Part shown: in pieces, positions 1,861-10,545 of the stretch
How the letters are laid out: every line of letters starts with the position of its first letter
How positions within the stretch are numbered: the first letter of the stretch is position 1
Source: a virus
Lineage: Duplodnaviria > Heunggongvirae > Uroviricota > Caudoviricetes
Length of the DNA: 10,567 nt
Virus record (IMG/VR): IMGVR_UViG_2802429231_000001
Reading direction: 5' to 3' (one strand)
Notes under the pieces: model-generated
Database searches by the model: none
What the model was told of the DNA's origin: nothing
What the model saw: only the letters and a program-made list of their open reading frames with translations
Made by a program: the position numbers and the translations under genes

Positions 1861-2427
1861 ATGACACCACGACAATTACTCGAAGACGTCAAATCCCGCT
1901 TCACACCTTTGATTGCGGATGAACCTGCTTTACTGGAATCCCTGCTAAGAAAAGCATTGGGAACCTACCAGGATAGGGCGGGGCACATCAAGCGGATACG
2001 CTTCACTGATCAGACCTGTAAATCACTTGCTTGCCCAGCTGATTTTCTTGCGCTCGTATCGGTTACAGATCACACCGGCGATCTTGTCTACTCCGATGTT
2101 TACGATGGGAATATCGAGCTTGAAGATACTCATCGAGCGGTATATCCGCTGAATGTGTCATATCTGGCTAATTTACGTGATATGGATCTGGATAATGGGG
2201 AAGTGCCACCTGAAATCATTGGGTTACTTTCTGACTATCTGGAAGTGTTAATCGCGATACCTAACACTGATCGCCTGCGAAGAATATCTATCGCGGGGAA
2301 ACTCGATGCCAGCAATTTATCCGACGAGAACACGCTGTATCAGCGAAAGCTGGATCTGGAAGAGAAAATGAGCGCAACAAGGGCAATTATCCCGGGAATT
2401 GTTCTTTTCTCATCCATGTTGAAGTGA
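1861..2427 (+). CDS. Phage structural or morphogenetic protein of unknown function (188 aa); first gene of the tail-gene block
   Basis: ATG with GAGG 5 nt upstream. G+C about 50% like the downstream genes. Ends 10 nt before the tube gene. No recognisable domain; any role as neck or tail completion protein is a guess from position only. Confidence 0.55.
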
Positions 2428-2437
2428 GGTCGTTGAT

Positions 2438-3049
2438 ATGGGACTTAATGTTGCATCAGTAAAGTCTTATATATCTTCGGCATTAACGACGACATTATTT
2501 GGCTCCGGCGTTGGTGAGCGGGAAGTTGGTAAGCTGACGTCAATCATCATGAACAAAATGCTGTTCGCGCAAGGATGGCAGTTCTCTGTCGAAGTTGATG
2601 GGCTGGAGGGGGCAGACTTCTTTGCCAAAGACATTACCTACCACGATTACAGCATCGAATATGAAATGATTAAAATCGGCGGAGGGAATATCCTTCAGCC
2701 AACGGAGCGTTCGCCTGGGCAGATAACAATGATGGTCAGGGATACCGGTGATGGCCTCGTTTTGGACTGGTTTAAGACGGCAAAAAGTCGGGTGATCAAT
2801 CCTGACGGCACCGTGAACATACCGTCTAAATATTTGCTCAATGTGCGTATTTATCGGTTGCTGTCTTCCGGTTTAACCAAACTGGAAAATGAGATGACGG
2901 TATTCCCGGTTACTACCGGCGATGTCACCTATGCGCGGGATCAGGTCACGGAATTTAAGTCATTCCCAATGACCTTCGCATTGCACAGCACGTTTAACCA
3001 ATCCTCAAGTTCTTTGGCTTCCCTTCTGGGCTTTAGTTTTTCTCTTTGA
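2438..3049 (+). CDS. Tail tube protein of a contractile tail (T4 gp19 / Afp1 / Hcp-like tube family), 203 aa
   Basis: SD TGAGG 8 nt upstream. Motifs WQFSVEVDG...ITYHDYSIEYEMIKIGGG...SPGQITMMVRDTGDGLVLDWF parallel the conserved tube blocks recalled from Afp1 (YRFxVxVxD...IEYRDG...PGQ...ITLRKG...LFDW). Position is immediately upstream of the chaperone-position gene and the tape-measure gene. Confidence 0.7.
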   Translation: MGLNVASVKSYISSALTTTLFGSGVGEREVGKLTSIIMNKMLFAQGWQFSVEVDGLEGADFFAKDITYHDYSIEYEMIKIGGGNILQPTERSPGQITMMVRDTGDGLVLDWFKTAKSRVINPDGTVNIPSKYLLNVRIYRLLSSGLTKLENEMTVFPVTTGDVTYARDQVTEFKSFPMTFALHSTFNQSSSSLASLLGFSFSL

Positions 3050-3063
3050 ATTAAGGAGCAAGG

Positions 3064-3945
3064 ATGCTTTTACCCCTTTTCCCGCTACCATCGCGGCCAA
3101 CTGAATTGATCCAGTTCCGTCAGCCAAATATTGCTGATGCGATGCGTTTCAACTCGATAACACCGGAGGAACAAGAACAACAGACAACGGCATATTTAAA
3201 AGCCTTGCTGGCTGAACCCGCGAAACATGATCCCCTGACATGGACGGCGCAGGACCGGATTACCGCGTTATGGTGGATATTTACCGGCTCCCGTGAAACA
3301 CCGGTCGAGACATTCACCTACACCTGTAAACATTGCGGTAAAGAGCATTATTACGATTGCGATATGAATGCTCTGGCTGAAGATATCCAGGTCCTGGAAG
3401 TGGAACCTTTCATTGACGATATTGAGGTGTCTGTAGAGGGAGTGCCTTATCAATGGCGTATCGTGCCGCTTGATGGTTGGGCAATGGAAATGCTGGAGAT
3501 GCGCCGTGCAGCATTGCCACCTGAAGACGACGCGGAATTCAAAGAAGCGATCGTTGATTTGCGTTTTTGGGAATTCGCTTATCAGTGTGAGCTTTATAAC
3601 GATGTTAGCGGTACTCGTGAAGATCAGGCTGAGCGTCGTTATGAAACGATTAAACGGATGGCCATTGATACTGAATTTATGAAGCTGGCGGCACACATCC
3701 GACTGGCTCATGAAAAGCTCGAACATGGTTTACCGTGCTACATCGATAAAGGTGAAATGCGTCTTCGTCTCCCGCCGCATAAATGCCCAAACCAGGATAA
3801 AAAGGAGTCCACAGAGGGTGCGTATACCCGTCTGTGGGTGCCCTTTCGGGCTACCGACTTCATTCCACAGGTGGGGATTGAAAAGCTATCAGACCTTAGT
3901 GTCCAACCTGGTTTTGTATGGGGGTATACCGATTCAGGACGCTGA
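3064..3945 (+). CDS. Cys-containing protein of unknown function (293 aa) in the position usually occupied by tail assembly chaperones, between tube and tape measure
   Basis: Strong SD AAGGAG 6 nt upstream of ATG 3064. Contains a C-K-H-C-x6-C cluster (TYTCKHCGKEHYYDCD) plus further Cys, suggesting a possible metal-binding site. The functional call is positional only. Confidence 0.55.
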   Translation: MLLPLFPLPSRPTELIQFRQPNIADAMRFNSITPEEQEQQTTAYLKALLAEPAKHDPLTWTAQDRITALWWIFTGSRETPVETFTYTCKHCGKEHYYDCDMNALAEDIQVLEVEPFIDDIEVSVEGVPYQWRIVPLDGWAMEMLEMRRAALPPEDDAEFKEAIVDLRFWEFAYQCELYNDVSGTREDQAERRYETIKRMAIDTEFMKLAAHIRLAHEKLEHGLPCYIDKGEMRLRLPPHKCPNQDKKESTEGAYTRLWVPFRATDFIPQVGIEKLSDLSVQPGFVWGYTDSGR

Positions 3946-4026
3946 AAGGCTCACTGAATCCTATGCGTTTTTCCTGTTGGAGAAACTGGAAGAAAAACTT
4001 AAACCGAAACGGTAGGCGATAAGATC

Positions 4027-9187: not shown

Positions 9188-10023
9188 TGCAGCGTTCCTG
9201 GTTTAATAACCGGCTTACATCAGCTAAGCAAAAGTCATTACTTTATAAATCATTGGCTGATTTGGTTCAGTCAATGATGGACACCTTTGTTGACCCATGG
9301 TTGGAGCGAATTACCAACCGGAAGTCTATTTTCTCCATGAGCAAGGAGGATCTGGAGACTAGGACAAATGAACTTGGCCAGTTTTTTACTATCAGAACGT
9401 CGAATTCATCTTCCGTTCCGATGTTGTTACAACAGCGGTTTGATGAGATCCATTTTAAGGGTACTGAACGCCCTATAAACCAGACAATTTATCGCGAATT
9501 TAACGGTATATCGGTTTTATGGGATCCCATATATGCTCCGGTGGACTTTGAACGTCATCCCTATGGCACGGTCCTGATTCCAGAAAGCACACTGGAAACC
9601 ACCGGCGGCACATTCGGCGAGATGTTTCTGACTTCCAGAGGAATGATCAGTATTCCCATAAACGACCTGGCCCGGACAATGGGTATTACTGGAACGATAG
9701 ATCAGTCCGCAATTACAGAAGAAATTCTCAGAAAGTTTAATCAGTTCGTAAAGCCTCTACTGCCACTGCATATAGTGTTTGATGGGCTTACGCTCTATTT
9801 GTCGGTTGTTGTAAATGAACAGGCCGACATGATCACTTTGAATGAGATTTCTGATACCGAAAAAGCATTCTGCTGGTTTGAAACTTCGGATACAACTTCG
9901 CTTACTGAAGTTACGTCGATTAACGCCCCGATCACTGCAACGCCGGGCGGCACTATTGTGAAAGCAACGCCTACGTTTGATCGCACCCGCGCAGATGATT
10001 TGCTGTTGGATAGCGATGCGTGA
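9187..10023 (+). CDS. Putative baseplate or tail-fibre attachment protein (P2 gpI-like position), 279 aa
   Basis: ATG 9187 with GAGGAGG 4-5 nt upstream; overlaps the upstream stop (TGATG; an in-frame GTG at 9184 is also possible). The call is positional only. Confidence 0.5.
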   Translation: MQRSWFNNRLTSAKQKSLLYKSLADLVQSMMDTFVDPWLERITNRKSIFSMSKEDLETRTNELGQFFTIRTSNSSSVPMLLQQRFDEIHFKGTERPINQTIYREFNGISVLWDPIYAPVDFERHPYGTVLIPESTLETTGGTFGEMFLTSRGMISIPINDLARTMGITGTIDQSAITEEILRKFNQFVKPLLPLHIVFDGLTLYLSVVVNEQADMITLNEISDTEKAFCWFETSDTTSLTEVTSINAPITATPGGTIVKATPTFDRTRADDLLLDSDA

Positions 10024-10026
10024 CAA

Positions 10027-10051
10027 TCACCCCGTCCGCAGGGCGGGGTGA
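10027..10051 (+). terminator. GC-rich hairpin (8-bp stem TCACCCCG/CGGGGTGA, 9-nt loop) starting 4 nt after the 9187..10023 stop; possible weak terminator, attenuator or RNA-stability element
   Basis: Read directly: 10027..10034 is the reverse complement of 10044..10051. It is flanked by the direct repeat TGACAA (10021..10026 and 10050..10055). There is no clear U-tract downstream, so intrinsic termination would be weak at best. Confidence 0.3.
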
Positions 10052-10101
10052 CAAGTTACTTATCTTACAATGAGGCTTCACAACATTGATTAGGGAAAAT
10101 C

Positions 10102-10545
10102 ATGTCTGACGTCTCAACAAACCTCTATAAGAGTCAGTTGTTGGACTATTACTATCAGCGGCGCGCTGAATCGTCCATTAACAAAGGCTCTCGATTTTTA
10201 ATCAGCAAGGCCGTTTTCGGTACCAGTTCACTGGTTACTAAGAAAGGAGATGGCACTTATGAGATTGGAGAACTGCCAAAGGCTTTCGATCTGGCAGAAC
10301 TGACCAGTCAATTTTGCACCATCAACCTCGTCCCAACCTACTCAGGCGGGATAATTACTGTCCGAATGGACCTTGATCAAAGTCAGTTGCAGGAAGGGAA
10401 AAACTACCCATTCAACACTCTGGTTGTTCTGGATAACGAGAATAAGCCAATCGCCATTATTTGTGTCCAGGAAGACTCGCTGTATGTGGGCAAAACATAT
10501 ACCGCTGAACCGCCCCGGTTTTCCTGGAGAGTATTTTACCTGTGA
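10102..10545 (+). CDS. Small protein with tail-fibre collar-like (P2 gpH N-terminal-like) domain, 147 aa; probable tail fibre or fibre-attachment component
   Basis: ATG 10102 with GGGA upstream. The blocks FLISKAVFGTS...TINLVPTYSGGIITVRMDL...FNTLVVLDNENKPIAIICVQEDSLY resemble the tail-collar fibre domain found at the N-terminus of P2-type tail fibres, as recalled from memory. The ORF terminates at 10545, 22 nt before the window end. Confidence 0.5.
   Translation: MSDVSTNLYKSQLLDYYYQRRAESSINKGSRFLISKAVFGTSSLVTKKGDGTYEIGELPKAFDLAELTSQFCTINLVPTYSGGIITVRMDLDQSQLQEGKNYPFNTLVVLDNENKPIAIICVQEDSLYVGKTYTAEPPRFSWRVFYL

Follow-up and report, generated by a model that had tools for sequence, protein, structure and literature searches.

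Why would the tail genes of a myovirus include a tube-like gene, a tape measure gene and baseplate wedge genes, and yet have no sheath gene ahead of them and no hub or spike genes behind? The question is raised by IMG/VR record IMGVR_UViG_2802429231_000001, a 10,567-nucleotide stretch of virus DNA (Caudoviricetes) that was analysed as a whole (hereafter the window), and in which an original prediction, made from the letters alone, had described a split tail-gene organisation and had suggested a phage-plasmid of the P1 family. We put at roughly nine in ten the probability that the window comes from a P1-type (Punavirus, IncY) phage-plasmid, of which it includes the LPsit late operon followed by LPs-R, and that its split appearance comes from the dispersal of P1 tail genes over several transcription units, from the naming of the gene tub, and from an insert found in the P1 and D6 clades. 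One gene of the operon, pmgB, would in addition probably encode two proteins through a conserved +1 frameshift.

Phage P1 (NC_005856 37884..46629) aligns with window positions 1808..10505 in two megablast blocks at 97.4–98.0% nucleotide identity (98.0% over 1808..6085 and 97.4% over 6694..10505 by blastn), and IncY P1-like plasmids of E. coli and Salmonella match positions 1..10505 at up to 99.9%, which bears out the P1-family attribution. Records matching the window by megablast number 33 for phages and 1017 for plasmids. The nearest plasmid relative, NZ_CP012491, is 99.9% identical and has the same gene order; it is a 95.7-kb IncY plasmid with repA, parAB, c1, lpa, phd/doc and the sheath and hub operons. 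The window itself holds ten plus-strand open reading frames (ORFs) with nearly no gaps between them, and all features located below are on the plus strand, except for the end of an insertion sequence (IS), to which no strand is assigned. The order pmgC-tub-pmgB-sit-pmgA-bplA-16-R, with orthologous proteins, is the order of P1, i.e., the LPsit late operon and then LPs-R, and the products are 97.5–99.8% identical to those of P1 in every case but Sit (84.7%). Thus the operon has the same genes, the same order and the same late promoters as that of P1. It is unlike P1 in the allele of the Sit SLT segment, in the exchange of simABC for two unrelated ORFs, and in gene R, which is cut by an IS3-family element.

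The late promoter LPsit, mapped from the P1 annotation through the alignment, has its -22 box (AAATGACAA) at 1811..1819 and its -10 hexamer, TAGAAT, at 1824..1829, and differs from P1 by a single mismatch, located in the -22 box. We infer that this promoter is functional in the window element, where the LPsit operon would be an Lpa-dependent late operon. The second late promoter, LPs (-22 box at 10053..10061 and -10 at 10066..10071), is identical to the LPs annotated in P1, and lies just beyond a GC-rich hairpin (10030..10048) that is found 3' of gene 16.

Gene roles in the LPsit operon

Profile searches alone could not settle any label in the operon other than SLT and gp6/J; the remaining labels can be settled by structure. 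Five window proteins (Tub, PmgC, PmgA, BplA and Gp16) match deposited chains of the P1 virion, and PmgB and Sit have no chain among the P1 virion models. The ORF boundaries given here are those that the original prediction had read from the letters. The first gene, pmgC (1861..2427, 188 residues), encodes a protein that is 97.9% identical to P1 PmgC and matches PDB 9ums_A (E = 1e-117). It is the head-tail adaptor, a dodecamer on the portal and not a tail protein; in electron cryo-microscopy (cryo-EM) of P1, PmgC forms the dodecameric head-tail adaptor (PMC12810830, PMC10304247), and knockout of pmgC leaves heads and tails unjoined (PMC9024508). The 188-residue gene that had been placed ahead of the tube gene is thus correctly positioned, and is a neck gene.

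The second gene, tub (2438..3049, 203 residues), encodes a protein that is 97.5% identical to P1 Tub and matches PDB 9ay5_A (E = 2e-128), a paralogue with the tube fold that makes up the hexameric tube-initiator ring of the baseplate. In the P1 virion, Tub forms this single ring, and the major tube, 52–53 rings in length, is formed by BplB (PMC12810830, PMC10304247). Were tub instead the major tail tube gene, located in the window apart from the sheath gene, P1 would uncouple the expression of sheath and tube, a reading encouraged by the labels on Tub ('major tail tube structural protein' in RefSeq and 'tail tube protein' in PHROGs) and by the fact that Tub and BplB were held equally plausible in 2022 (PMC9024508). 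We regard it as very improbable, because the cryo-EM models build BplB into the 52–53 tube rings and Tub into one ring of the baseplate, the protein encoded at 2438..3049 matches that baseplate Tub chain, and bplB belongs to the sheath operon. The call of 2438..3049 as the tube gene is accordingly replaced by that of a baseplate tube initiator.

Downstream of tub, pmgB (3064..3945) has a frame-0 product of 293 residues, a probable tail-assembly (tape-measure) chaperone that is discussed below. It is followed by sit (4027..7401), whose 1124-residue product, 84.7% identical to P1 Sit (1140 residues), is a tape measure with an SLT lytic transglycosylase domain in its C-terminal third (residues 742–847; Pfam E = 5e-14, 52.3 bits against a cut-off of 21.3), in agreement with the Sit-like transglycosylase protein of about 1100 residues named in the original prediction. 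The tape measure assignment of Sit has been made in two studies (PMC12810830, PMC9024508), of which the latter also gives its helical content, and Sit is the unresolved tape measure of the cryo-EM work (PMC12810830, PMC10304247).

The three remaining genes of the operon encode the baseplate wedge, in which PmgA, Gp16 and BplA are named BW1, BW2 and BW3, respectively (PMC12810830, PMC10304247), within a P1 baseplate described in Mu nomenclature (PMC12810830). The gene pmgA (7401..7757, within the ORF 7398..7757) comes directly after sit, the stop of one overlapping the start of the other, and encodes the gp25-like BW1, which is 99.2% identical to P1 PmgA, matches PDB 9ay5_M, and was related to T4 gp25 by HHpred (PMC9024508). 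The gp6/J-like BW3, present in two copies per wedge, is encoded by bplA (7754..9187, 477 residues; 99.8% identical to P1 BplA; PDB 9ay5_Y), and its profile matches are to Pfam Gp6-like_1st and Baseplate_J, with weak matches to T4 gp6 structures. The gp25-like and J-like labels proposed earlier for these two proteins therefore hold, on the Pfam matches of BplA, on the PDB chains and on the wedge roles seen by cryo-EM. The 'fibre-related' label for gene 16 (9187..10023, within the ORF 9184..10023) does not: its product is 97.5% identical to P1 gp16 and matches PDB 9ay5_a ('Gp16'), which is the wedge protein BW2. We note that in many P1-like plasmids RefSeq names the BplA orthologue 'bleomycin hydrolase', a misannotation of the wedge protein BW3.

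In sum, the operon would supply the adaptor (pmgC), the tube initiator (tub), a non-structural chaperone (pmgB), a peptidoglycan-cleaving tape measure (sit) and the three wedge proteins (pmgA, bplA and 16).

Dispersed tail genes and the bplB-pmgC junction

Where, then, are the sheath, the tube, the hub and the spike? Among the window proteins there are no profile matches to sheath, hub or spike (Pfam, PHROGs), and by tblastn the P1 proteins gp5, gp6, gp24, gp7, gp25, gp26 and UpfB have no match in the window, as the original prediction had supposed from the gene content. In the RefSeq annotation of P1, the operon 22-21-pmgG-bplB begins with the sheath gene 22, 8.8 kb upstream of pmgC, and closes with the true tube gene, bplB, whose end is 6.9 kb upstream of pmgC. 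A third operon, 26-25-7-24-6-5, holds the hub and spike genes, and upfB is at a fourth site. The products of these genes have been placed by cryo-EM as hub (gp6), spike (gp5 together with UpfC), tripod (UpfB) and plug (gp26) (PMC12810830, PMC10304247). In the nearest plasmid relative, the sheath, hub/spike and upfB genes are on the same IncY replicon and encode proteins with 97–100% identity to those of P1, the hub/spike operon being 25–30 kb from sit. Sheath and hub/spike genes do lie elsewhere, as had been expected, in separate operons of both P1 and this plasmid.

The tail genes of P1 are read from at least four transcription units, 22-21-pmgG-bplB, the LPsit operon, 26-25-7-24-6-5, and upfB/upfC. 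The appearance of a tube without a sheath, and of a wedge without a hub, arises because the tail genes of P1 are dispersed and because the name tub denotes a tube paralogue and not the major tube. In particular, the contrast of a tube gene with no adjacent sheath gene rests on the old name Tub, since bplB is two genes beyond the sheath gene, in the sheath operon itself. The dispersed layout is indeed a feature of the P1 family, in the sense that it is the ordinary, annotated organisation of the P1 genome; as a new observation it does not stand, being already known.

The comparison with Mu and P2, whose tail cluster runs sheath, tube, frameshifted chaperone, tape measure, hub, spike, gp25-like, J-like and I-like, shows what is shared and what is not. 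Like that cluster, the window has a tube-fold gene, a chaperone, a tape measure and three wedge genes (gp25-like, J/gp6-like and a third). Unlike it, the window has its sheath and major tube in another operon, an adaptor gene at the head of its own, no hub or spike gene separating its tape measure gene from those of the wedge, wedge genes in the order BW1-BW3-BW2, and a muralytic domain on the tape measure. The Baseplate_J domain of BplA, and the succession of a tape measure by wedge genes, would also suit a tail cluster from a Mu/P2-like chromosomal prophage whose sheath and hub genes were just beyond the window edges. The chance of this is vanishingly small, given the 97.4–99.9% nucleotide identity to P1 and P1-like IncY plasmids throughout the window, and given that the close relatives all have immunity and replication genes upstream and the R-S-U fibre genes downstream.

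The interval between bplB and pmgC in P1 contains pmgF, rlfBA, repL/oriL, kilA, ant1/2, icd, c4 and simABC. Its history was addressed by comparing the genomic context of divergent PmgB homologues from 10 lineages, onto which the P1 proteins were mapped. From bplB to pmgC there are 6.9 kb in P1 and 6.7 kb in the nearest plasmid; in a D6-like Salmonella element there are 4.3 kb, and the insert of this element has a content of its own (a YhaV/PrlF toxin-antitoxin pair, ant, icd, a simA-like gene and YfjT). Beyond the P1 and D6 clades, the junction is 5–121 nucleotides in all eight lineages: Pantoea, Enterobacteriaceae B14, Citrobacter, Buttiauxella, Serratia, two lineages of Xenorhabdus, and Aeromonas, the loci behind them including two from Serratia and five from Xenorhabdus. 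Pantoea alvi is the closest outgroup, at about 70% amino acid identity. The block 23-22-21-pmgG-bplB-pmgC-tub-pmgB-sit-pmgA-bplA-16-R-S is unbroken in a full 20-kb locus of Xenorhabdus bovienii and in another of Aeromonas dhakensis (3402..20562 in locus L004, X. bovienii FO818638, and 3076..20553 in locus L005). Hub and spike genes are non-adjacent in the contiguous relatives as well.

The simplest reading of this distribution, by parsimony, is that the split, confined to the P1 and D6 clades among the 10 lineages, is a derived, clade-specific insertion of cargo at the bplB/pmgC junction. We infer that a single ancestral head-tail operon would have been broken in the P1/D6 lineage by a module for immunity, lytic replication and exclusion (c4-icd-ant immunity, with or without kilA-repL/oriL, rlfAB, pmgF, and sim or its replacements), after which the downstream half would have been driven by its own late promoter, LPsit. 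The reverse order of events, in which the split layout is ancestral and the contiguous block of Xenorhabdus, Serratia, Aeromonas and others arose by deletion of the intervening module, has in its favour that accessory modules of phage-plasmids are easily gained and lost (PMC9603915). We consider it improbable, since a tight or overlapping junction (5–121 nucleotides) in eight out of eight lineages, Pantoea among them, would call for repeated precise deletions, and since the inserts of P1 and D6 differ in content and in size, as is to be expected of a hotspot that acquires cargo.

Some points weigh against the P1-type assignment with a derived insertion. The choice of insertion over loss rests on parsimony over 10 lineages; the sheath operon, the replicon and the hub operon are outside the window, so that their presence in the window element is deduced from the 99.9% identical relatives; and the IS in gene R makes this copy other than pristine, and perhaps defective in fibre production. 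Two observations on the contiguous elements stand apart from this argument. A contiguous head/tail block of the P1 type is also seen in elements of Serratia, Citrobacter, Buttiauxella and Pantoea, and gp21 and PmgB are conserved throughout the contiguous elements, though both are outside the P1 virion models.

A candidate +1 frameshift in pmgB

The gene pmgB is located directly upstream of the tape measure gene, both in the P1 annotation and in the window. It is essential, its deletion abolishes tails, and PmgB is absent from virions (Gonzales et al., PMC9024508); a role as tape-measure chaperone was proposed in that study from position alone, with no frameshift reported, and the cloned pmgB ORF complemented a pmgB deletion 4.7-fold (PMC9024508). 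We propose that pmgB, in P1 and in all sampled relatives, probably encodes two proteins, of 293 and 316 residues, via a conserved programmed +1 frameshift at UUU CGG.

The candidate site, TTT CGG, is at 3844..3849, and the +1 extension would be read from codons 3848..4012 to a stop at 4013..4015. The +1-frame ORF (3710..4015) overlaps the 3' end of pmgB and stops 12 nucleotides before the ATG of sit. The predicted long product has 316 residues, a 261-residue body followed by an alternative C-terminus of 55 residues, with the junction peptide ...LWVPF-GLPTSFHR... and extension peptides that include WGLK, SYQTLVSNLVLYGGIPIQDAER and LTESYAFFLLEK. The evidence comes from 15 loci of the 10 lineages. 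In all 15 loci the +1 frame reads on past the position of the frame-0 stop and closes at the start of sit, the extension being 52–58 codons. Its peptide follows the pattern G-[ILV]-x-x-[ST]-...-L-x-[LV]-Y-G-x-x-[PS]-..., then a charged helix; its L-x-[LV]-Y-G motif is found at extension residue 21 in all ten lineages, and no indels separate the motif from the site. Over the 50 codons that follow the site, none of the 10 lineages has a +1-frame stop and the mean identity in this frame is 44%, and all 10 have stops in frame 0 and also in frame +2. The predicted shifted product is 310–319 residues in all lineages, against 268–297 residues for the frame-0 product.

The position of a shift is narrowly defined. 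Stops in the +1 frame are 5–8 nucleotides 5' of the site in three lineages, and stops in frame 0 are 30 nucleotides 3' of it in two, so that any shift is confined by these flanking stops to about 35 nucleotides starting at the in-frame TTT CGG. This is the sole fully invariant 6-nucleotide block in a gap-free alignment of 121 nucleotides, and among the 3402 codons of the window it occurs in frame once. Of the 51 codon-degenerate residues of PmgB that are invariant in the ten lineages, Phe261 (TTT) is the only one encoded by a single codon.

The same +1-frame ORF could be read without any frameshift, either as a separate small gene or as an untranslated by-product of constraint on frame 0. We judge this unlikely, on several grounds. 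The compared lineages have no conserved start codon or Shine–Dalgarno motif in the +1 frame; in locus L004 no +1-frame start codon exists from extension residue -33 to +43, and in locus L005 the first one is inside the conserved motif. The peptide conservation, the constant length of the long product, the frame-0 stops in every lineage and the nucleotide invariance of TTT CGG, described above, argue likewise for translation of the +1 frame from within pmgB. In favour of a reading with no shift, the case for a frameshift is built on sequence comparison, no stimulatory RNA structure was found, and the extension is predicted with low confidence: the AlphaFold2 (AF2) model of the 316-residue product, effectively a single-sequence prediction, has helices at 272–286 and 290–312 with a predicted local distance difference test (pLDDT) score of 46–60. 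In addition, CGG accounts for 31 of the 167 Arg codons in the phage's own genes, and an argument from a rare CGG codon is weakened by this usage, a point that counts against the frameshift.

Regarding mechanism, the proposed frameshift would most likely take place with CGG still undecoded, by a slip of the P-site tRNA-Phe from UUU onto UUC. A canonical -1 slippery heptamer (XXXYYYZ) is not seen, as the conserved frame is +1 and the only invariant block is TTTCGG. No conserved RNA structure was found around the site (RNAalifold, 121 nucleotides, 10 lineages, -0.97 kcal/mol), so that a structure-stimulated shift is unsupported, and no conserved upstream Shine–Dalgarno-like stimulator is evident in the aligned flanks. 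Known +1 frameshift sites include that of E. coli prfB (CUU UGA C) and 'shifty' sites of the UUU-pyrimidine type, and structural genes of Listeria phage PSA are said to be another example of +1 frameshifting. Like the prfB and UUU-pyrimidine sites, the pmgB site has a P-site tRNA that can re-pair one base on (UUU to UUC, both Phe) and an A-site codon that is presumably slow. Unlike the prfB-type sites, it has no A-site stop codon, and neither a conserved Shine–Dalgarno-like stimulator nor an RNA structure was detected.

The predicted PmgB pair would be the P1 counterpart of the G/GT pair of phage lambda, a type of tail assembly chaperone pair reportedly made by programmed frameshift (Xu, Hendrix and Duda are said to have described it in 2004). 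As with lambda G/GT, the gene is directly upstream of the tape measure, is non-structural and is essential for tail formation, the two predicted products have the same N-terminal body, and the shifted frame runs up to the start of the tape measure gene. Unlike lambda G/GT, the predicted shift is +1 at UUU CGG and not -1 at XXXYYYZ, the body is large (261 residues) and the extension short (52–58 residues), and the pmgB shift is predicted from sequence. PmgB shows a weak resemblance in fold to the tail assembly chaperone of HK97, and Foldseek of the PmgB model against the PDB gave no match at E <= 0.001. A Pfam match of PmgB to T4_baseplate is sub-threshold (E = 0.004, 17.2 bits against a cut-off of 24.5) and is not relied on.

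The shifted product is absent from a collection of 15 billion proteins, in which three lineages were looked up, and is unannotated in the P1 RefSeq record; a pmgB frameshift was likewise not found in the searchable literature, which is not proof that it was never noted. If we may speculate, the weak 4.7-fold complementation would be consistent with a clone lacking the extension. Two further observations concern the PmgB homologues. In the X. bovienii record (FO818638), the range of the PmgB-homologue gene, 10001..10943, is 943 nucleotides, which is not a multiple of 3, and begins at the start of frame 0 and closes at the stop of the +1 frame, though the recorded product is the 277-residue frame-0 protein; an annotator or pipeline may have treated this homologue as frameshifted. 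Four residues of PmgB, C88, C91, H95 and C241, are invariant across 14 homologues, a pattern suggestive of metal binding by the body of the chaperone.

Variable segments and what the locus means

The window differs from P1 most visibly upstream of LPsit, where homology to P1 starts at 1808, 3 nucleotides upstream of the -22 box. The preceding cassette (1..1807), with a GC content of 0.35–0.38, replaces simABC of P1, a documented hypervariable, low-GC region of P1-like phage-plasmids (PMC9603915). It is found full-length in 20 PLSDB plasmids and has no megablast match in phages. Its first ORF (29..535, 168 residues) has a signal-peptide-like N-terminus and belongs to phrog_3429, of unknown function (E = 4e-70), with no match in Pfam, PADLOC or NCBIfam. 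The second (522..1706, 394 residues) has a bacterial SH3 domain at its C-terminus (SH3_3, E = 1e-5; phrog_7086, E = 2e-200), coiled-coil-like repeats and one hydrophobic segment; its RefSeq relative starts at window position 537 and is labelled 'SH3 domain-containing protein' in NZ_CP012491, and a terminator-like hairpin (1689..1704) is located at its end. Both ORFs drew nothing from the defence systems of PADLOC or from NCBIfam, and a role in defence or superinfection exclusion would be a guess from their position. Beside the cassette boundary, a perfect 11-bp inverted repeat at 1820..1854 (CTCGTAGAATC ... GATTCTACGAG, with a 13-nucleotide spacer), identical in P1, overlaps both the LPsit -10 hexamer and the leader of pmgC.

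A second difference is inside sit, where the gap between two blastn high-scoring segment pairs to P1 delimits a divergent allele of the SLT segment (6086..6693). The encoded segment has about 30–37% protein identity to P1, between flanks that are 97–98% identical, and by protein alignment it keeps the catalytic motifs ES, GxFQ and AYxAG. The pattern of identity points to a domain-sized recombination patch, i.e., a swapped allele inside the tape measure. PLSDB has 61 plasmids with this allele, which megablast recovers from no phage record; its best phage protein match, at 58.7%, is Sit of the P1-like Cronobacter phage JK004.

The third difference is at the downstream end. Gene R, for tail-fibre structure or assembly (phrog_2032, tail fiber assembly), occupies 10102..10505 of the ORF 10102..10545, and is intact through codon 135 before it is interrupted. 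Residues 1–135 are 99.3% identical to P1 R, and the last 9 residues are swapped for 12 that are IS-encoded. The interrupting sequence (10506..10567) is the terminal 62 nucleotides of an IS3-family element, from the first base of the inverted repeat, and is 96.8% identical to elements annotated 'IS3 family transposase' in 427 E. coli genomes. The reference copy, which the window matches from its first base, is 1309 bp in length, with 25-nucleotide terminal inverted repeats and a frameshifted transposase of the IS3 family. Together, the window sequence and the reference copy show the features of that family (a terminal inverted repeat beginning TG..., an element of about 1.3 kb and a two-ORF transposase with a frameshift), one end of the element being inside the window. 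Neither PLSDB nor a set of 5426 complete E. coli genomes contains the junction of R with the IS. In P1, the fibre gene S and the invertible C segment come after R (RefSeq annotation), in line with the search of the flank for a fibre gene and an invertible segment that the original prediction had advised. The IS would part LPs-R from the S-U fibre genes, and the window copy may be fibre-defective.

As to its layout, the locus re-identifies a textbook phage and, as such, adds nothing to what is already known of P1 biology. Databases label Tub a 'major tail tube protein', PmgB and PmgC 'head morphogenesis', gp16 a 'tail tube protein' and BplA a 'bleomycin hydrolase'; such labels on this operon lead both people and automated readers astray, and the operon is best read against the structures of 2023–2026. 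The comparison across lineages marks the bplB/pmgC junction as an integration hotspot in phage-plasmids. If the pmgB frameshift is true, it would be a missing piece of P1 tail assembly and a clean natural case of +1 recoding at a UUU-C site, and constructs for the engineering or complementation of P1 would have to reach window position 4015.

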